Below are positions 55,985-64,000 of a stretch of 64,000 nucleotides of DNA, in pieces (within the stretch, counting starts at the first letter, position 1; every line of letters begins with the position of its first letter). The DNA lies in the NCBI GenBank assembly GCA_032127875.1, contig JAQBHI010000049.1, forward strand, positions 40,150 through 104,149, written 5' to 3'. The position numbers were made by a program, and so were the translations under genes. This DNA is from Acidobacteriota bacterium (GTDB taxonomy: Bacteria; Acidobacteriota; Vicinamibacteria; Fen-336). The notes beneath the pieces were generated by a model. That model did not search any database, had not been told where the DNA came from, and saw only the letters and a list, made by a program, of their open reading frames with translations.

Positions 55985-56371
55985 TCAGGAGGCCGTCTCC
56001 AGAAGCCGGGCGGCCCGCTCGCGAAACTCCGCGAGTACCGAATCCACGGTCCGTCGCTGCTCCGAAGTGAGCCCCTTGAAGCTGACGCCGAACGAGTGCA
56101 GGCCGCTCACGTCGGAGGCGGTGCGCACCCAGCGCGCCTCGGCCGGCAGGCGATGCTTGGCCGCGCGCGTCCGCAAACGCAACTCGAGCGTGAGCCGCTG
56201 GCCCACACGCGGCGGCGGCTCGTCGGAGTACACGCGCGCGCCGCGGACCGAGAGGTTGGTGACGTAGCCCGACAAGCGCCGCCGGCCTGCCACCACGCGG
56301 CAGGCCGCCAGATACGGCTCGATGCGCCGCGTCTTGCGCTTGTCCTTGCTCTCAGGCACGCTCCGCACCAT
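55985..56371 (-). CDS. PilZ-domain protein (c-di-GMP receptor)
   Basis: ATG 56371 with GGAGG upstream. PilZ motifs RKTRRIE and NLSVRGARV (RxxxR ... N/DxSxxG). Confidence 0.7.
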   Translation of the reverse strand: MVRSVPESKDKRKTRRIEPYLAACRVVAGRRRLSGYVTNLSVRGARVYSDEPPPRVGQRLTLELRLRTRAAKHRLPAEARWVRTASDVSGLHSFGVSFKGLTSEQRRTVDSVLAEFRERAARLLETAS

Positions 56372-57065
56372 CGGACTCGCCTCCTTCCGCGCCTTGCTCC
56401 AGCGCGGCCGCGATCCGGCCACGAACCTCGGCGATCAAGAGATCGCGGTCGTCGTAACTGTACCCTCCTGCTTCGAGCGGGTCCAGGACCCGCAGCGTGA
56501 CTGTGCCGGGCCTCACACTGAAGCCGCCGCGCGGCAGCAGCTCCCGAATGCCCGAGATCGCCACCGGCAGGATCCTGCTGCCCGCCTCGGCCGCCACCAC
56601 GAAGCCGCCCTTCCGGAATTCCCCAAGGCTCCCGGTCTTCGTTCGCGTGCCTTCCGGGAAGATCAAGAAGCAGTTGCCGCCTTTGAGCGACGCCACCGCC
56701 GCGCTGATCGCCGGGCGCGACTGCTCGGGATCCTTACGGTCGACTTCGATGAAGCCTGCATAACGCAGGCAGTTGCCGAAGAACGGCGTGCGGTACAGCT
56801 CGGTCTTCACGACTGCCTTGAAGTCGATGCCGAGCGTGAGCGCCACGACCGGCGCATCGAGCTGGCTGACGTGATTGGGCATCACCACGACGTTGCGGGT
56901 GTCGGCGAGGCGCTGCTTGCCAAGGACGACGAAGCGTGTGCCGGCGATGAAGAGCATGATCCTGCAGCCGAGCCGGCCGAGCCTATAGAGCAGCGCGGGT
57001 GAGCCCAGCAGCCGGGCCACGGGGTAACCGATCAGGCTCGCGAGGACGACGTAGGGAGGAATCAC
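56352..57065 (-). CDS. plsC: 1-acyl-sn-glycerol-3-phosphate acyltransferase
   Basis: NHVSQLD (HX4D) and FPEGTR motifs. Confidence 0.8.
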   Translation of the reverse strand: MIPPYVVLASLIGYPVARLLGSPALLYRLGRLGCRIMLFIAGTRFVVLGKQRLADTRNVVVMPNHVSQLDAPVVALTLGIDFKAVVKTELYRTPFFGNCLRYAGFIEVDRKDPEQSRPAISAAVASLKGGNCFLIFPEGTRTKTGSLGEFRKGGFVVAAEAGSRILPVAISGIRELLPRGGFSVRPGTVTLRVLDPLEAGGYSYDDRDLLIAEVRGRIAAALEQGAEGGESDGAERA

Positions 57066-57096
57066 CGCCAGGATGAGAGCGGCCCGGATCAGGAGA

Positions 57097-57417
57097 TCAG
57101 GACTCCCGGTTGGGCTCGGAGGCCGCGGGGGCGCCGGCCATGGCTCCGTTCAGCAGGGCCTTCAGTTCCTTGCCCATCTTGAAGTAGGGGATCTTCTTCG
57201 ACGGAACGTCCACCTTCTCGCCGGTCTTGGGGTTGCGTCCCTTGCGCGGCGCCCGGTTCCGGAAGCGGAAGCTTCCGAAGCCGCGGATCTCGACCTCTGA
57301 GCCGTTCTGAAGGGCCGAGACGATGCTCTTGAGGGCCGCCTCGACGATGATCCCGGACTGAACCTGGGTGATATCGAGGCGCTTCGCCACGATGTTGATC
57401 AGGTCCGCCTTCGTCAT
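57097..57417 (-). CDS. Integration host factor / HU-family DNA-binding protein
   Basis: IHF core GFGSFRFRNRAPRKGRNPKTGEKVDVP. Start taken at ATG 57417 (MTKADL). Confidence 0.85.
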   Translation of the reverse strand: MTKADLINIVAKRLDITQVQSGIIVEAALKSIVSALQNGSEVEIRGFGSFRFRNRAPRKGRNPKTGEKVDVPSKKIPYFKMGKELKALLNGAMAGAPAASEPNRES

Positions 57418-57550
57418 CGCACTTCTGGAGGGCTCGTTCATCGCAGCGCTTGGCTCGCTAGGGGTCAAAAGACGAACAGAAGTCTAGCCCTGGGATCAGG
57501 CCGAAGTCAAGGCAGCGTTTGGAGTTGGACGAGGCCGACGGTGTGGTCGC

Positions 57551-58180
57551 CTAGGCGTCCGCCGTGCGCCGGCGCAGCCCGACCGGCTTCTGACGCACGG
57601 GCTTGGGCGCGGCTTCGAAGGTCTTGTTGAGGGCCTTCTCGACCTTTTCCTCGATGGTCTCCAGCGTCTTGCCCTCGACCTCGGCGATCTCACTCGTGAT
57701 CAGGAACTTGGCGCGGTCGAGCATGCGCTTCTCACGGAACGAGAGGGCCTTCTTCTTCGAAAGGAAGGTGAGGCCCTTGAGAACGTGGGCCACCTCGAAG
57801 ATGCTGCCCGTCCGCATCTTGTCCGAATTCTCCTTGAAGCGGCCCTTCCAGTTCGAATGCTGCTCGATCGTGCCGTCGCCGAGAATCGTGAAGATCTTGC
57901 GCACGTCGCTCGAGCTGATGACCGGCCGCAGGCCCACCCCGCCGGCGTTCTGCTGCGGAACCCAGACCCGCGAGTCGTTCGAAAGGATGCGCAGCTTGTA
58001 GAGGCTGATCTTGCCCGTCGGCGTCGGCCGGGTCTGGATGCTCTCGACGATGCCGATGCCGTGATTCGGGTAGATGACCTTCTCGCCGACCTGGAACTCC
58101 ACGCGGACCTCTCTTTCGAGTCTTACCGATGAGCTCGGGTGGGTTTGGGTGCTTGCACGATAAAGCGCCGAGAAGGACAT
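57551..58180 (-). CDS. CarD/CdnL-family transcriptional regulator
   Basis: CarD_CdnL_TRCF N-terminal domain (FQVGEKVIYPNHGIGIVESI). Start taken at ATG 58180; uncertain. Confidence 0.7.
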   Translation of the reverse strand: MSFSALYRASTQTHPSSSVRLEREVRVEFQVGEKVIYPNHGIGIVESIQTRPTPTGKISLYKLRILSNDSRVWVPQQNAGGVGLRPVISSSDVRKIFTILGDGTIEQHSNWKGRFKENSDKMRTGSIFEVAHVLKGLTFLSKKKALSFREKRMLDRAKFLITSEIAEVEGKTLETIEEKVEKALNKTFEAAPKPVRQKPVGLRRRTADA

Positions 58181-58217
58181 TGTAGCAAACGCCGCTGCGC
58201 GCGGCAAACGCAAGGGC

Positions 58218-59333
58218 TCAGGAATCCTGTGCGTACTCCTTGAGCACCGCGACGCACCGATCGATATCGGCCTCGTTGTTGTAGAAGTGCGTCGAGATGC
58301 GGATGCCCTGGCGCTTCTCGGTCACGAGCACGCCCTGGCGACGCAGGGCGCGGGCGCAGCCGGCGGGATCGTCGGCCTCCACGAGCGTTTCGCCCGAGCG
58401 GTGGGCGCCGCCGGGAGACAAGCAGGCGAAGCCTGCCTCGGCGAGCGACGCAGTCAGATAGGCGTTGAGTTCGAGGACGCGCTGCGCGATGTGCGGGATG
58501 CCGATGCCGAGGACGTAGTCGAGCGCCGCACCCAGTGCGAAGATCGCCCCGAAAGGTGGGCAGCCCAATTCCGCCCGTTCCGCCGAGGCAAGCACCTTGT
58601 ATGCCCGGTTGTCGAACTCGAACGGATTCTCGACGCTCATCCAGCCCAGATTTCGGGGTGGACGGCGTGCCAGAAGCGCGCGGCTCATGTACACGAAGCC
58701 CGCCCCGTAGCCCGCGCACAGCCACTTGTGCCCGGCGCTGGCGAGGGCGTCGATCTGGCACTTCTTCACGTCGATCGGAAAAGCCCCGACACTCTGGCTT
58801 CCGCAGACCACGAAACTGCGACGCCCCTTTATCGCGCCGAAGGCCTCGAGATCCTGGCGGCAGCCGTTCGAGAATTGCACGTGGCTCAGGACCAGGCTCG
58901 CCGCCTTCGGCGCGTCGGCGAGCGAAAACGACTCGATGTGGAGGATGCCCTCGACCGCGGGCACGAAATGCAGGGCCGCACCGCGATGCAGCCACGGCAG
59001 CGTGACCGTCGGGAACTCGAGCTCGTCGGTGAGTACGGCCCCGTCGTCGGCCAAGAGGTCGGCGATCAGGTTCATGCCCACGGAGGTGTTGTCGACGAAC
59101 GCGATCTCGTCGGGCTCAGCGCCGATCAGGCTGGCCGCCTGCACGCGTGCGTGGGCGCGGCGCGCGAGCCACAACTCCCAGGCGCGATCCCCCGACTCTT
59201 CGAGTTCCCGGTAGAACGCGCTCACCGCTTCGCGCACCGGCTTCGGCGTGGGGCTACCGGCCGCGGCGTTCAGGTAGACGTAGCGTTCGGCGGCCGGGAA
59301 GTCCTTGCGCAGCTCGTCCCAGGCAGGGGCCAT
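58218..59333 (-). CDS. Class V aminotransferase (cysteine desulfurase / selenocysteine lyase-like)
   Basis: AAT-V fold with PLP-lysine motif SAGHKWL. Start at ATG 59333. The ORF-track 5' extension to 59708 is antisense to the tRNA gene. Confidence 0.75.
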   Translation of the reverse strand: MAPAWDELRKDFPAAERYVYLNAAAGSPTPKPVREAVSAFYRELEESGDRAWELWLARRAHARVQAASLIGAEPDEIAFVDNTSVGMNLIADLLADDGAVLTDELEFPTVTLPWLHRGAALHFVPAVEGILHIESFSLADAPKAASLVLSHVQFSNGCRQDLEAFGAIKGRRSFVVCGSQSVGAFPIDVKKCQIDALASAGHKWLCAGYGAGFVYMSRALLARRPPRNLGWMSVENPFEFDNRAYKVLASAERAELGCPPFGAIFALGAALDYVLGIGIPHIAQRVLELNAYLTASLAEAGFACLSPGGAHRSGETLVEADDPAGCARALRRQGVLVTEKRQGIRISTHFYNNEADIDRCVAVLKEYAQDS

Positions 59334-59425
59334 TGCCGAGAGGATAGCGTAAACGGCGGCGCTGTGATCCGGTCCTTGGGGCGCGACGGCCACGGCAGAC
59401 TCGCATACACTTAAGATCCGCTTCG

Positions 59426-59513
59426 GCCGGAGTGGCGGAATGGCAGACGCCCCGGACTCAAAATCCGGTACTTCGCAAGGAGTGTGCGGGTTCAAGTCCC
59501 GCCTCCGGCACCA
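59426..59513 (+). tRNA. tRNA-Leu (anticodon CAA), type II with long variable arm, CCA encoded
   Basis: Manual fold: 7-bp acceptor stem GCCGGAG/CUCCGGC, anticodon loop CU-CAA-AA, 17-nt variable arm, T-arm GCGGG-UUCAAGU-CCCGC, discriminator A plus CCA. Confidence 0.85.
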
Positions 59514-59559
59514 CTGGCGGTCGAGCAGCCGCCGGTTTCGGGGCCGCTTGGGTAGGCTA

Positions 59560-59901
59560 GTGGAGATCACTGCAGAACAGGTCGCCAGCGTCCTCGTGCT
59601 CTCGCCGCAGGGGCGCCTCGACAGCAACACCTCGCCCCGGCTCGAGGAGCGTGCGTTTCTGGAGATCAGCGGCGGGACCACGCGCCTGGTGGTCGACCTG
59701 TCCGCCATCGACTACATCAGCAGCGCTGGAGTGCGCGCGTTTCTCGCCGTGGCCAGAAGACTCAAGGACCCGCCTGCCCGCCTCGTGCTGTGCGGCATGG
59801 CGCCCAGCGTCAGGCAGATCTTCGATCTCGCGGGGTTCACGGCGATCTTCGCGATCGAGGGCATGCGCGACGACGCCCTGGCCCGCGCCGCCGGGCCGTG
59901 A
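59560..59901 (+). CDS. STAS-domain anti-sigma factor antagonist
   Basis: SpoIIAA-like (LSAIDYISSAGVRAFLAV ... VRQIFDLAGF). GTG start. Confidence 0.7.
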   Translation: MEITAEQVASVLVLSPQGRLDSNTSPRLEERAFLEISGGTTRLVVDLSAIDYISSAGVRAFLAVARRLKDPPARLVLCGMAPSVRQIFDLAGFTAIFAIEGMRDDALARAAGP

Positions 59902-61154
59902 GCGACGGCCGGCGGCTGCGCTCGCTGCTCGACGTCTCGCAGGCGATGGCGGCGGAGATCGACCTGGAGGCGCTGCTCGAGGTGATCCTGCGGCGCGCCA
60001 ACGAGATCATGGAGGCCGAGCGCAGCAGCCTCTTCATCTACGAAGAGACGACACAGACGCTCTCGAACCGGATCTCGGGGGCCCTGAAGCCTGGCAGCGT
60101 GCGCGTCGCCCTGGGTGAAGGCATTGCGGGGCACGTCGCGAAGACGCAAGCGGTTCTGAACGTCCCCGACGCCTACGCCGACCCGCGCTTCAACCCGAGC
60201 TTCGACAAGGAAACGAGTTTCCGCACGCGGTCGATCCTGTGCGCGCCGATGGTCGCGCGCAACGGCCGGCTGATGGGCGTGCTGCAGGCGCTCAACAAGG
60301 CCGGGGGGGGCGCCTTCACGGGCGAAGACGAGGAGCTGTTGTTGGCTTTTGCCTCGCACGCGGCGATCGCGCTCGATCGTGCGCAACTGGTCGAGGCCTT
60401 CGTCGACAAGCAGCGCATCGAAGAAAGCCTGCGCCTCGCACACGACATCCAGATGGGGATGCTGCCCCGCAGCTTCCCGGAGCGGCCGGGTCTGCGTACG
60501 TTCGCGAGACTGCTGCCGGCGCGCTCGGTGGGCGGCGACCTCTACGATGTGGTGGACCTGGGCGATCGCGTCTTCTTCCTGGTGGGCGACGTGTCCGGCA
60601 AGGGCGTTCCCGCCGCGCTGTTCATGGCGGTGACCAGGACGCTGCTGCGCGCGAGCGTCGAGATCGAGCGCACGCCCGCCGCCGTGCTGGCCCGCGTCAA
60701 CCGCGAGCTCAGCCGCGACAACGAGCGATCGATGTTCGTCACCGCTTTCGTCGGTTGCCTGGAGCTGGCCAGCGGCGAGCTCCAGTTCTCGAACGCGGGC
60801 CACAATCCCCCCTACCGGGTTGACCGTGACGGAGGGATCACCGAGGTACAAGACGCCCACGGGATGGCGATGGGGATCCTGGAAGAGTTCCCCTACACGA
60901 CCGGAAGCTTGAAGCTCGACGCCGGTGACGGGCTGTTCCTCTTCACCGATGGCGTGGTCGAGGCGCTGAACCGGCCGGGCGAGCAGTTCGGGTCCGAACG
61001 TCTCATGGCCTACCTGACCGCGAGCGCGCAGTCGCCTCCCGAGGCCGTCGTGCGAGGCGTCCTTGCTTCCGTGTCGGCGTTCGTCGGCGACGCCCCCCAG
61101 TTCGACGACATCACGGTGCTCTCGCTCCGCTTCGGCGACCCTCTGAAGGCGTGA
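59898..61154 (+). CDS. GAF-domain plus PP2C-type Ser/Thr phosphatase (RsbU/SpoIIE-like)
   Basis: GTG overlapping the STAS stop (GTGA). GAF domain, then PP2C motifs (GGDLYDV, FLVGDVSGKGVPAALFMA, FTDGVVEA). Confidence 0.8.
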   Translation: MSDGRRLRSLLDVSQAMAAEIDLEALLEVILRRANEIMEAERSSLFIYEETTQTLSNRISGALKPGSVRVALGEGIAGHVAKTQAVLNVPDAYADPRFNPSFDKETSFRTRSILCAPMVARNGRLMGVLQALNKAGGGAFTGEDEELLLAFASHAAIALDRAQLVEAFVDKQRIEESLRLAHDIQMGMLPRSFPERPGLRTFARLLPARSVGGDLYDVVDLGDRVFFLVGDVSGKGVPAALFMAVTRTLLRASVEIERTPAAVLARVNRELSRDNERSMFVTAFVGCLELASGELQFSNAGHNPPYRVDRDGGITEVQDAHGMAMGILEEFPYTTGSLKLDAGDGLFLFTDGVVEALNRPGEQFGSERLMAYLTASAQSPPEAVVRGVLASVSAFVGDAPQFDDITVLSLRFGDPLKA

Positions 61155-61160
61155 TGCGGC

Positions 61161-62807
61161 TCAGGGCCGGGAGAGGTAGCGAGCCACCAGGATCGCGATG
61201 TCGTCCGACTGGGGCGCTTCGCCCGAAAACTCCTGAACGGCGCGCAGCGACCCTTCCACGATGCCCTGCGCTGGTGCGCCGCAGAGCGCGCGCAGGCAGG
61301 CTTCGAGCCGCGCCTCCGTGTACTGCGCTTGGCCGGGCTCCTGGGCCTCGGTGACGCCGTCGGTGTAGAGGTAGAGCGCTTCGCCGGGGTCGAGCCGCAC
61401 GTGTCCCGGGGCATAGGCCTGGCCCGCCACGACACCCAAGGCCATGCCCGCGGCCTCGTCGAGGCGGAGCAGCGAGCCCTCGCTTCCGAGGACGTAAGGA
61501 CGGTTGTGGCCCGCATTGGCGAAGCGGAGGTCGCCGCTGCCGAGGTCAAGGCAGGCGGCGAAGGCCGTGACGAACATCGCGCTCTCGTTGTCGCGGGCGA
61601 GCTCGCGGTTCATGGCCGTGAGCACGGCGGCAGGCGAGGCCTGCGCCTGGAGCAGGGCACGGAACAGCGTCTTCGTCACCGCCATCAGCAAGGCTGCGGG
61701 GAAACCCTTTCCCGAGACGTCGCCCACCAGCAGCCACAGGCCGCGTTCGTCCATCACGAAGTCGTAGAGATCTCCTCCCACCGCGCGGGCCGATTTCAGG
61801 GTCGCCGCCAGCTCGAACTCGGCCCGGCGCGGGAACTCCCGCGGCAGCATGGCCATCTGGACCTCGCGGGCGAGATCGAGCTCCTTTTCCAGGAGCAGAT
61901 GGCGGGCCGCCTGCTCGGTCAGCGTGAGGTTGCGGATGCGCAGGGCGGCCGCCGACGCCAGGGACACCAGGAGCCCGAGGTCCTCCTCCGAGAAGCGCCG
62001 CACGTGGAGCCGGGAATTCAGCACGATCATGCCGAGGCAGCCGTCGCCGTCGAGAAGCGGAGCGGCGACCAGGCTTCGCACGCCGGCGAACTGGATACTC
62101 TCGGATCCCGCGAACCGATCGTCGACGCCGACGTCCGCCACGAGAGCCGCCATGCGTTTCTCGTTGACCTCGCGAACCAGGCTGCGTGAACACAGGAACT
62201 CGCCGACGACGTCCGGGTGGCGGCGGCTGGCCGCCGGGTAGAGTTCTCCCGAGGCTCCCTTCAGGAAGATGGCGCCCTCTTCGGGCTTCAGGTGTTCGAA
62301 GGCTCTGTCCAGGATAAGGTCGAGCAGCGCTTCGCGGGTGATGGGTTCGGCGAGGGCGCGGTGCACTTCGTTGATCAGCTCGAGCCGGCCTGTCAGCCGT
62401 CGCAGCGTCGCTTCGTCCGCGCTATTTCGCTCCCAGCTCCGCACCTGTGTCTCGAGCTCCAGCGCCGACTTGAAGATCCCCTGGATCGCCGGTGCGGACG
62501 ACGCCGCGGCGGCCGTGGGCCCAATCGTCACGCGGGTCGAACCCAGCCTCAGCACGTCCCCGGGGCGCACGGGAGTTCGCCCGGAGACGGCGTGCTCGTT
62601 GAGCAGCGTCGGGTTGTGCGAGCCCAGGTCTTCCAGGATCCACTCTTCGCCCTCGGGCACGAGCCGGGCGTGCAGCCGGGACAGGAACCGATCGGGGATC
62701 ACGAGGTCGGCCTTGCGCGAGCGGCCCATCACCAGGCAGGGCCCCGAACACTCACGGGAGAAGGCGACGCCCGACGGCGGCGTGACGACCAGCTGCAGTG
62801 GCGTCAA
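61161..62807 (-). CDS. FHA-domain plus GAF-domain plus PP2C-type phosphatase
   Basis: N-terminal FHA (CLVMGRSRKADLVIPDRFLSRLHARL ... LEDLGSHNPTLLN). GAF. SpoIIE-type PP2C (VGDVSGKGFPAALLMA). Confidence 0.8.
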   Translation of the reverse strand: MTPLQLVVTPPSGVAFSRECSGPCLVMGRSRKADLVIPDRFLSRLHARLVPEGEEWILEDLGSHNPTLLNEHAVSGRTPVRPGDVLRLGSTRVTIGPTAAAASSAPAIQGIFKSALELETQVRSWERNSADEATLRRLTGRLELINEVHRALAEPITREALLDLILDRAFEHLKPEEGAIFLKGASGELYPAASRRHPDVVGEFLCSRSLVREVNEKRMAALVADVGVDDRFAGSESIQFAGVRSLVAAPLLDGDGCLGMIVLNSRLHVRRFSEEDLGLLVSLASAAALRIRNLTLTEQAARHLLLEKELDLAREVQMAMLPREFPRRAEFELAATLKSARAVGGDLYDFVMDERGLWLLVGDVSGKGFPAALLMAVTKTLFRALLQAQASPAAVLTAMNRELARDNESAMFVTAFAACLDLGSGDLRFANAGHNRPYVLGSEGSLLRLDEAAGMALGVVAGQAYAPGHVRLDPGEALYLYTDGVTEAQEPGQAQYTEARLEACLRALCGAPAQGIVEGSLRAVQEFSGEAPQSDDIAILVARYLSRP

Positions 62808-63154
62808 GGCGACGGGGCGTTCGCGAGCCGCGTGATCGCCAGTTCCCGTGAAGCCTCCATCTCGAAGAGCGAGACGAAGCCGGCCAGCTCGAACACCTGT
62901 CGCACGGCCGGGCCCAGCGAGCTCAGCACGATGCGGCCGGAACGCTCCTTCTGCTTCCGGGCCAGCCGCAGCAGGACGCGGAGCCCCGCGCTGCTGATGT
63001 ACTCCACGGCCCGCATCTCCAGAACCAGCTTCGCCTCGCCCTGGGCCACCAGGCCGAGCAGGCTTTGCTCCAGTTTATCGGACGTGACAGCGTCGACGCG
63101 GCCGACCGGGACCACGACCACGACGTCGCCGCTTCTCTCATGGCTGATCTCCAT
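62804..63154 (-). CDS. STAS-domain anti-sigma factor antagonist
   Basis: ATG 63154 with GAGGGA upstream. EYISSAGLRVLL ... VRQVFELAGF. Its stop overlaps the phosphatase start. Confidence 0.7.
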   Translation of the reverse strand: MEISHERSGDVVVVVPVGRVDAVTSDKLEQSLLGLVAQGEAKLVLEMRAVEYISSAGLRVLLRLARKQKERSGRIVLSSLGPAVRQVFELAGFVSLFEMEASRELAITRLANAPSP

Positions 63155-63162
63155 GGTTTCCC

Positions 63163-63594
63163 TCAGGCCTCTTCCATGAGCTTCCTTCGGAGCCGGAGCC
63201 GGTTGCGTTCTCCGCGCCGCTCGTACTCGACGACCTCCATGAGCTTGCGCAAGAGGGCGATGCCCAGGCCGCCGACCTGTCTCTCCTCGAGGGGCAGCTC
63301 GGTGTCGGGCGTAGGGGCCTCGAGCGGATTGAACGCCGGAGCGTCGTCGACGATCAGCATCTCGATCTCCCGGCCCTGGAGCCGCAGTTCGATCTCGATC
63401 GCGGTCCCTTCGCCGCCGCCTGACAGCCCGTGGCCGACGATGTTGGACAACGTCTCGTCGAGCGCGACCTGGAAGGGCCAGACCTCGCCCTTCGAGAGCC
63501 CGTGGGCTGCCGAGAACGCCTCGAAGCGCTCCGCCGCCAGCCGAAGGCCCTCCTTCGAGCCCGGCACGCGCATTCTCTCGCAGGCTTCCATCAT
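63163..63594 (-). CDS. Anti-sigma regulatory factor (RsbW/SpoIIAB-like Ser kinase, GHKL ATPase)
   Basis: HATPase_c-like (ALDETLSNIVGHG ... IEIEL ... VDDAPAFNP ... GGLGIALLRKL). Confidence 0.75.
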   Translation of the reverse strand: MMEACERMRVPGSKEGLRLAAERFEAFSAAHGLSKGEVWPFQVALDETLSNIVGHGLSGGGEGTAIEIELRLQGREIEMLIVDDAPAFNPLEAPTPDTELPLEERQVGGLGIALLRKLMEVVEYERRGERNRLRLRRKLMEEA

Positions 63595-63691
63595 GGGACG
63601 GCGAACCTGCTGGATAGTAACCCGGCCGTGGTTGCGGCGCCGCCGCGCCGTGATAGCCTCCTATCAACTTTTGGATCCGCGACGTGTATTT

Positions 63692-64000
63692 ATGGTCGAT
63701 GGGGGGGACGACAACGAGTTCGTCGACCGGTGCCTTCATGGCGACCTCGAGGCCTTCGCGCCCCTCGTGGCCCGGTACCAGAGGCCGCTCTACAACGTGG
63801 CCCTGCGCATGGTCAGGGATCGCGAAGATGCACGCGACATCACGCAGACCGCATTCGTCAAGGCCTGGGAGAAGCTCGGAAGCTTCGACCCTAAGCGCCG
63901 CTTCTTCAGTTGGATCTATAGGATCGCGCTCAACGAGTGCCTCAACTTCGTCTCGCGACGCCCGCGGGAGCAGCCCCTCCAGACGGAACTGCCCTCGGCC
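63692..64000 (+). CDS. ECF-type RNA polymerase sigma factor, 3'-truncated at the window end
   Basis: Sigma-70 region 2 (FAPLVARYQRPLYNVALRMVRDREDARDITQTAFVKAWEKL ... SWIYRIALNECLNF). Absent from the ORF track because no stop lies inside the window. Confidence 0.7.
   Translation, partial: MVDGGDDNEFVDRCLHGDLEAFAPLVARYQRPLYNVALRMVRDREDARDITQTAFVKAWEKLGSFDPKRRFFSWIYRIALNECLNFVSRRPREQPLQTELPSA

Follow-up and report, generated by a model that had tools for sequence, protein, structure and literature searches.

A partner-switching module is conserved beside a SigW/RpoE-like ECF sigma factor gene in Acidobacteriota and Gemmatimonadales

Introduction

[quoted passage not shown] Partner switching by STAS proteins, RsbW-type kinases and PP2C phosphatases is regarded as a feature of group 3 sigma factors and of assorted non-sigma outputs. 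The described systems to which the present locus can be compared are sigmaW/RsiW/PrsW of Bacillus subtilis, the RsbU/RsbP-RsbV-RsbW-sigmaB and SpoIIE-SpoIIAA-SpoIIAB-sigmaF systems, btr of Bordetella, Hsb of Pseudomonas aeruginosa and PhyR-NepR-EcfG of Alphaproteobacteria. Here we analysed a stretch of 64,000 nucleotides (nt) of a Vicinamibacteria (Acidobacteriota) contig, referred to as the window, whose cluster at 59426-64000 holds a partner-switching operon divergent from an ECF sigma factor gene, and we report from a comparison with some 90 related loci that this association is conserved.

In its sigma factor operon the locus resembles sigmaW/RsiW/PrsW: the ECF gene is followed by a co-transcribed gene for a single-pass, RsiW-like class-I anti-sigma factor, the sigma gene would be autoregulated from a promoter of the AAC...CGT type, and a PrsW-family protease is encoded in the locus of relatives. 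It departs from that system in that the sigma factor stays under every SigW equivalog cut-off, the CxxC zinc ligands known from RsiW are missing, the PrsW gene of relatives is linked to the operon, additional genes for a repeat protein and a protein of ~980 amino acids (aa) are present, and a partner-switching module is attached. The module has the STAS, kinase and PP2C families and folds of the sigmaB and sigmaF systems, and its two phosphatase inputs recall RsbU and RsbP. Unlike those systems, the neighbouring sigma factor is not of group 3 but an ECF with its own anti-sigma factor of the anti-sigma domain (ASD) type, the genes stand in the order kinase-STAS-phosphatase, GAF and FHA sensors are part of the phosphatases, and the module lacks the ECF promoter motif and is probably not under the control of the sigma factor.

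The btr locus (BtrS, BtrA, BtrU/BtrW/BtrV) likewise joins an ECF and its own anti-sigma factor with a PP2C/kinase/STAS trio (PMC7498569). However, BtrA is secreted, btr serves type III secretion, its genes are interspersed with unrelated ones and the pairing belongs to one lineage, whereas here it is family-wide and occurs in four gene orders; type III secretion genes were not among the conserved neighbours in the related loci, and the likeness is one of layout only. In P. aeruginosa, the STAS protein HsbA, when unphosphorylated, binds FlgM, an anti-sigma factor that is not a kinase, and frees FliA (PMC6482189), and a release of this kind is what we propose below; the target there is FlgM/sigma28 in place of an ECF with a class-I ASD protein, and kinase and phosphatase are domains of a single response regulator, HsbR. 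The main text of the 2021 ECF reclassification names PhyR-NepR-EcfG (ECF15) as the partner-switching mode of ECFs and, as far as that text goes, makes no mention of phosphatases, antagonists or HATPase domains (PMC7826278). PhyR is a sigma-mimicking response regulator, and that system has no homology to the STAS/GHKL/PP2C module described here. In the literature searched we could not find a STAS/kinase pairing with this ECF class described, a supplementary or database listing being possible. The component families are known and their family-wide linkage to an ECF is apparently undescribed, which agrees with an initial annotation of the window that had called the design unusual.

Results and Discussion

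Partner-switching genes are conserved beside the ECF sigma factor gene

All genes that the initial annotation had listed for the cluster were recovered at the same coordinates, with Pfam scores far above threshold. The divergent core is made up of the following genes.

63692..64000, plus strand: ECF sigma factor gene, ATG at 63692, first 103 of 178 codons, running off the window (Sigma70_r2 E=1.7e-18; TIGR02937 63 bits; matches to many ECF models)
63163..63594, minus strand: GHKL kinase of RsbW/SpoIIAB fold, 143 aa, first gene of its operon and divergent from the sigma gene (HATPase_c_2 E=2.4e-23, 83 bits)
62804..63154, minus strand: STAS2, 116 aa (Pfam STAS E=1e-19; TIGR00377 above cut-off)
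61161..62807, minus strand: FHA-GAF-PP2C serine phosphatase, 548 aa, TTG start codon, last gene of the kinase operon (domains by Pfam)

The conservation of this arrangement was surveyed from the kinase and from the sigma factor. A genome scan with an alignment of 14 kinase sequences gave 240 relatives, and 79 loci were taken. Seven of these 79 loci form the orthologous clade (41-90% identity; labelled Vicinamibacteria, other Acidobacteriota and, in one case, Gemmatimonadales), and each of them carries the divergent ECF operon. The 72 paralogous RsbW-like kinase loci, which have the usual phosphatase-kinase-STAS order, served as control and none of them had an ECF-like sigma factor gene within 2.5 kb. 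For the sigma-based survey we took the closest 80 of at least 423 metagenomic relatives (45-58% identity), annotated their loci with home-made hidden Markov models built from the kinase-based loci, and counted a locus as informative when its sequence before the sigma gene reached 450 bp or more. A STAS gene, a kinase gene or both lay directly beside the ECF sigma gene in 68 of the 70 informative loci, as against 0/72 in the control, and the association between partner-switching genes and an ECF on which the initial annotation had remarked is thus real and conserved. The loci fall into the following gene orders.

Types A and A': divergent, as in the window, with phosphatase, STAS and kinase on the strand opposite to that of sigma; about 20 loci
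Type B: co-directional, in the order (cyclase), GAF-PP2C, kinase, STAS, sigma, anti-sigma; about 43 loci
Type C: STAS alone, divergent from sigma; about 14 loci
Locus L164: kinase and STAS after the gene for the ~980-aa protein; 1 locus

Precomputed Pfam annotation of three long contigs agrees independently with these maps. When the sigma factors are placed on a neighbour-joining tree, their architectures are structured by clade and yet interleaved, which indicates that the linkage has outlived several rearrangements. It is found in loci with a GC content of 52-72% whose labels are Acidobacteriota and Gemmatimonadales. The window itself holds no further gene of the sigma-70, STAS, kinase or PP2C families in its entire 64 kb.

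The sigma factor is followed by an RsiW-like anti-sigma factor

Sequence past base 64000 was taken from a near-identical 5-kb contig, L001, and from relatives; the kinase protein is identical on three short public contigs, of which L001 is the longest, and L001 matches the window proteins at 99-100% across the overlap. On L001 the complete sigma factor has 178 aa, with Sigma70_r2 (65 bits) and Sigma70_r4_2 (59 bits), no match to Sigma70_r3, and 120.8 bits to TIGR02937 against a cut-off of 42.9. Having regions 2 and 4 only, it is an ECF, as it had been called from its first codons, and a group 3 (SigB-like) identity finds no place: Sigma70_r3 is absent and the listed NCBIfam and PDB matches are all ECFs. 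Its nearest solved relatives are ECFs of the AlgU/RpoE/SigW type, and SigW models are among the best NCBIfam matches; the SigW equivalog cut-offs (TIGR02948/PRK09641) were missed, with 97.7 vs 243 and 111.8 vs 209 bits. Judged by these scores, the sigma factor is SigW/RpoE-like and not a SigW orthologue.

Directly 3' of the sigma gene on L001, with an ATGA overlap, lies a gene for a protein of 255 aa with a single hydrophobic, transmembrane segment at residues 94-116 (Kyte-Doolittle). A profile of 26 family members has B. subtilis RsiW (5wuq_C) as its best PDB match (E=2.8e-7, positions 1-77), RskA following at E=0.028; the NCBIfam model NF052375 was matched at E=4.4e-5, under its cut-off. The zinc ligands HxxxCxxC are not kept, the columns of the RsiW C..C being occupied by E/D/A/R, and the protein is not a zinc-associated anti-sigma (ZAS) domain protein. 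By its profile matches and membrane topology it is an RsiW-like class-I (ASD) membrane anti-sigma factor. The initial annotation had held that a canonical anti-sigma gene after the ECF gene, combined with a lack of interaction between the RsbW-like protein and the sigma factor, would speak against its proposal; the first half of this pair was found, in the form of the ATGA-coupled RsiW-like gene. With a canonical class-I anti-sigma translationally coupled to the sigma gene, the idea that the RsbW-like kinase alone governs the sigma factor had to be given up.

An ASD-type anti-sigma is present in every relative examined. About 23 loci had at first appeared to lack it, as if it had been replaced by the kinase, and this was ruled out. 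In 24/24 such loci, all with a short gap after the sigma gene, the frame of the following gene, here called 'next', is open up to the sigma stop codon, a start codon lies within -18 to +19 nt of that stop, and the N-terminus of 'next' retains the anti-sigma helix-4 motif (D/E)PPP..L...VM. We take this to mean that a shortened anti-sigma is fused to 'next' and not absent; the whole family would therefore have an ASD-type anti-sigma, for which the kinase is no replacement. In these fused loci the ECF promoter motif lies inside the fused open reading frame (ORF), and a short form without the anti-sigma domain may be made.

The 'next' gene (L001:1-366, minus strand; also L006:2818-3831 and L102:4763-6049) encodes a membrane-anchored protein without a Pfam family, which consists of 9-residue repeats (S-D-A-V/F-R/K-Q-A-L), and it carries an ECF promoter motif of its own. 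In relatives it is followed by genes for an exported protein of ~980 aa, also without a Pfam family, and for a PrsW-family intramembrane protease. PF13367 (PrsW-family) genes were found in the locus of L005, L007, L026, L084, L163-L166 and others; in L164 this gene and the sigma gene are arranged divergently. In the sigmaW system PrsW cleaves RsiW as its site-1 protease.

The ECF promoter motif stands before the sigma gene and not before the partner-switching operons

Two promoter elements could be placed in the region between the divergent genes.

63665..63688, plus strand: ECF-type promoter CAACTTTTGGATCCGCGACGTGTA, 3 nt before the sigma start codon
63614..63619, minus strand: possible -10 hexamer TACTAT of the kinase operon, weak, its conservation judged by eye

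The promoter of the sigma gene reads CCAACTTTT-N-CGTGTA (also given as CCAACTTTTGGATCCGCGACGTGTA), and the motif has the general form CCAAC(T/C)TTT-N13/14-(C)GTGTA. It is the sole match in 64 kb, with 0 expected from shuffled sequence, and is kept before the sigma gene in all architectures, recurring before 'next'. The sigma gene is accordingly inferred to be autoregulated through its own promoter. Neither the kinase operon, on its own strand, nor the operon of the second STAS gene (STAS1, described below) was preceded by the motif, in the window or in relatives, and the notion that the partner-switching operons are members of the ECF regulon was rejected on this ground. The motif standing before the sigma gene and 'next' and not before the kinase operon places the partner-switching genes upstream of the ECF, and by their promoter regions they look like constitutive upstream regulators of it.

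At the -10 site of the kinase operon the relatives carry a conserved block resembling TGCTATGAT (intergenic alignments); scanning 59300-64000 for terminators and, strictly, for sigma-70 promoters yielded no useful result. In every architecture exactly 3 nt separate the end of the -10-like GTGTA (or TGTA) of the sigma promoter (window 63683-63694) from the sigma ATG, which suggests that the sigma mRNA would be leaderless or nearly so. Just 5' of the -35 element, at 63650-63666, lies a block, GTGATAGCCTC, that is conserved in L004, L005, L006, L084 and L166. In the window and in L006 this block forms an inverted repeat, TGATAG-N4-CTATCA, overlapping the -35; an operator or a further promoter could be located there.

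The kinase operon encodes the components of a partner-switching module

The AlphaFold2 model of the kinase (pLDDT 82) has as its best PDB folds SpoIIAB (TM score 0.75), RsbW (TM score 0.70) and UsfX. In sequence its similarity to RsbW is remote (E=0.009), and with 31.7 against 145 it stays far below the RsbW/SpoIIAB equivalog cut-offs; by this measure it is not an orthologue of RsbW. Invariant in its clade are the N-box residues E47 and N51, the adenine-binding Asp D83 and the GGLG lid. The canonical G1 box DxGxG is absent across the clade and is replaced by DDAPxF, with Ala for the first Gly, which makes kinase activity plausible and not assured.

STAS2 and STAS1 are both of the SpoIIAA/RsbV type, each having a single STAS domain, the ISSAG motif and a phosphorylatable serine position. 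Ser55 of STAS2 aligns with Ser58 (DSSG), the phosphorylated residue of SpoIIAA (alignment to chain 1th8_B). The kinase and STAS2 genes had been described as coupled. They are close, with a gap of 8 nt, and do not overlap; the overlap in the minus-strand operon is that between the STAS2 stop and the phosphatase start, as TTGA.

The phosphatase at the end of the operon combines FHA (E=1.9e-15, 57 bits), GAF (E=1e-13, 52 bits) and SpoIIE (E=1.9e-50, 172 bits) domains and keeps the motifs GGDLYD, GDVSGKG, YTDG and DDIA. In this protein, as in the second phosphatase of the cluster, the SpoIIE profile is covered whole and all PP2C metal-binding motifs are present. Its FHA domain shows, by eye and within residues 28-70, GR, SRLH and NPTLLN, that is, the conserved Arg, Ser-x-x-His and Asn, and a phospho-threonine partner is implied by the domain. 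Orthologues of this phosphatase come after STAS in L005, L007, L008, L029, L084, L132, L160 and L166.

STAS is favoured as the output component

The ISSAG motif is present in 17/17 divergent (type A) loci. In the co-directional loci it is exact in 38/42, and the aligned serine is kept in 41/42. By contrast, in the 14 STAS loci without a nearby kinase gene the motif is relaxed, and the serine is changed to Gly in 4/14. That ISSAG is kept with a kinase and relaxed without one ties each STAS to its neighbouring kinase. That STAS is kept beside sigma even without a kinase, at times in a non-phosphorylatable form, suggests that it has a partner other than the kinase. We favour STAS as the effector on the sigma/anti-sigma pair because a pure kinase antagonist should have vanished together with the kinase; the kinase would then be the off-switch and the phosphatases the on-switches.

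From gene content, synteny, motifs and folds, from which the mechanism and all protein contacts are inferred, we propose a node of the sigmaW/RsiW/PrsW kind with a conserved cytoplasmic partner-switching input whose output is unphosphorylated STAS, and we put the probability of this reading at about one half. The first operon, most of which lies past base 64000, would encode an autoregulated ECF sigma factor, its anti-sigma, an ECF-dependent 'next', the exported ~980-aa protein and a PrsW-family protease; the sigma factor would be held mainly by its own anti-sigma and probably be freed by regulated proteolysis of the PrsW type. In the second operon the kinase would phosphorylate STAS2, and probably STAS1, on the conserved serine, and FHA-GAF-PP2C and GAF-PP2C would remove the phosphate. 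FHA would make them responsive to a protein bearing phospho-threonine, and GAF to a small ligand, possibly a cyclic nucleotide. Unphosphorylated STAS would act as anti-anti-sigma on the sigma/anti-sigma complex, with the kinase as its off-switch, for which HsbA is the precedent. If true, these ECFs would gain a cytoplasmic cyclic-nucleotide or phospho-threonine input atop envelope-triggered proteolysis. The linkage, having withstood rearrangement, suggests a new way of joining cytoplasmic and envelope signals on one ECF. The many orphan partner-switching modules in Acidobacteria and in other bacteria of soils and sediments would thereby be given a defined target. The idea is directly testable, with promoter motif, phospho-serine and all proteins defined. 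More tentatively, STAS partner switching may be an ancestral and regular control layer of this whole ECF family, with unphosphorylated STAS acting on the class-I anti-sigma; the family with this layer would then extend over Acidobacteriota, Gemmatimonadota and sediment bacteria.

A class III nucleotide cyclase gene (~217 aa; Pfam Guanylate_cyc 26 bits against a cut-off of 21.9) lies directly 5' of GAF-PP2C in 16 co-directional loci, for instance at L095:3328-3981. From its position, the ligand of GAF in the co-directional lineage may be a cyclic nucleotide; no such cyclase was found near the GAF phosphatases of the window, and it is present only in the co-directional architecture.

Several points weigh against the proposed node. 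The kinases of divergent and co-directional loci are only ~26% identical, each being ~28-36% identical to unrelated paralogues, while the sigma factors of the same two groups are ~50% identical; the modules may thus be non-orthologous, swapped or recruited more than once, and the divergent and co-directional ones need not work alike. For the STAS-only loci, a kinase may be encoded at a distant site of the same genome. The genes that follow sigma, anti-sigma and PrsW included, come from the near-identical contig and from relatives, and the contigs of the closest relatives, L001 and L006, end before the position of PrsW, which is known from others. The sigma-based sample covers the closest 80 of at least 423 relatives, and the association may not extend far beyond it. 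Finally, the Bordetella btr trio shares its locus with an ECF and its anti-sigma and does so without regulating the availability of the sigma factor (PMC7498569).

This last example leads to the alternative that the module has a non-sigma output and shares with the ECF only physiology and location, like BtrU/W/V, whose route is a documented case of a trio beside an ECF and its anti-sigma that does not work by sequestration. The module might then act on the PrsW protease, on the repeat protein or the exported ~980-aa protein, or on a second-messenger enzyme. Many STAS proteins have non-sigma targets, such as SypA and SiaC, and in L164 the kinase and STAS genes follow the ~980-aa gene and are not beside sigma. 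Against this, STAS adjoins sigma in nearly every architecture, more tightly than it adjoins any downstream gene: it lies ~45-60 nt upstream in co-directional loci and ~100 bp away in STAS-only loci. We consider a non-sigma output doubtful.

Alternatively, the RsbW-like kinase may itself sequester the ECF, to be released by dephosphorylated STAS in the manner of RsbW/RsbV/sigmaB, with the membrane anti-sigma as a parallel brake. The kinase has the SpoIIAB/RsbW/UsfX fold and its top structural matches are all sigma-binding anti-sigma kinases; in the architecture of the window no gene lies closer to sigma than that of the kinase, the 64 kb hold no sigma gene besides the ECF, and the association is conserved. 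The kinase domain of HsbR binds RpoS, so the targets of such kinases exceed sigmaB and sigmaF. However, an ASD anti-sigma is already there in every family member, and the 14 loci that keep STAS by sigma with no nearby kinase have regained no fuller anti-sigma domain, which makes the kinase unlikely as an essential sigma-sequestering partner. SpoIIAB, moreover, contacts region 3 of sigmaF, a region that ECFs lack. Proteins of the RsbW type have reportedly never been seen to bind ECFs (PMC7406223), and RbaW of Rhodobacter capsulatus gave no two-hybrid signal with two ECFs (PMC3999984). Direct kinase-sigma binding is possible on the modelled fold and less favoured, and sequestration by the kinase appears to us quite improbable as the mode of control.

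Chance adjacency of unrelated partner-switching and ECF operons, which the abundance of partner-switching genes in Acidobacteriota (240 kinase relatives in the genome scan) might suggest, is effectively excluded by the contrast of 68/70 with 0/72 and by a linkage that survives inversion, relocation and loss of the kinase, in architectures interleaved on the sigma tree.

A second STAS/phosphatase pair and the surroundings of the cluster

On its left the cluster comprises three further features.

59426..59513, plus strand: tRNA-Leu(CAA) (ARAGORN), the sole tRNA in the window and left border of the cluster
59560..59901, plus strand: STAS1, single-domain, 113 aa, GTG start codon (Pfam STAS E=1.2e-18)
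59898..61154, plus strand: GAF-PP2C serine phosphatase, 418 aa, GTG start codon (SpoIIE E=2e-56, 191 bits; GAF E=1e-21, 78 bits)

STAS1 begins 46 nt 3' of the tRNA, scores 68.6 bits with TIGR00377, above the cut-off, and has ISSAG as its phospho-site motif; its identity with STAS2 is 42%. The GTGA coupling noted earlier for this pair was seen again, the phosphatase start at 59898 overlapping the STAS1 stop. GAF-PP2C keeps the motifs GGDLYD, GDVSGKG, FTDG and DDIT. The pair is conserved only in L006, the closest relative, and is a lineage-specific addition beside the tRNA; it would form a second antagonist and phosphatase branch onto the single kinase. The two phosphatase genes of the cluster converge at 61154-61161, where their stop codons are only 6 bp apart and nothing resembling a terminator hairpin intervenes, so the transcripts of both operons would overlap.

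Adjacency to tRNA-Leu is likewise retained only in L006. With this, and with a flat G+C profile, uniformly ~68% over the window, the tRNA was not favoured as an integration site or mobile-element border. The ORFs 5' of it (56352-59400) look, by eye, like housekeeping genes. They include an acyltransferase-like ORF, an HU/IHF-like ORF (57097-57468, minus strand), a CarD/CdnL-like ORF (57551-58213, minus strand) and an aminotransferase-like ORF (~58218-59400, minus strand).

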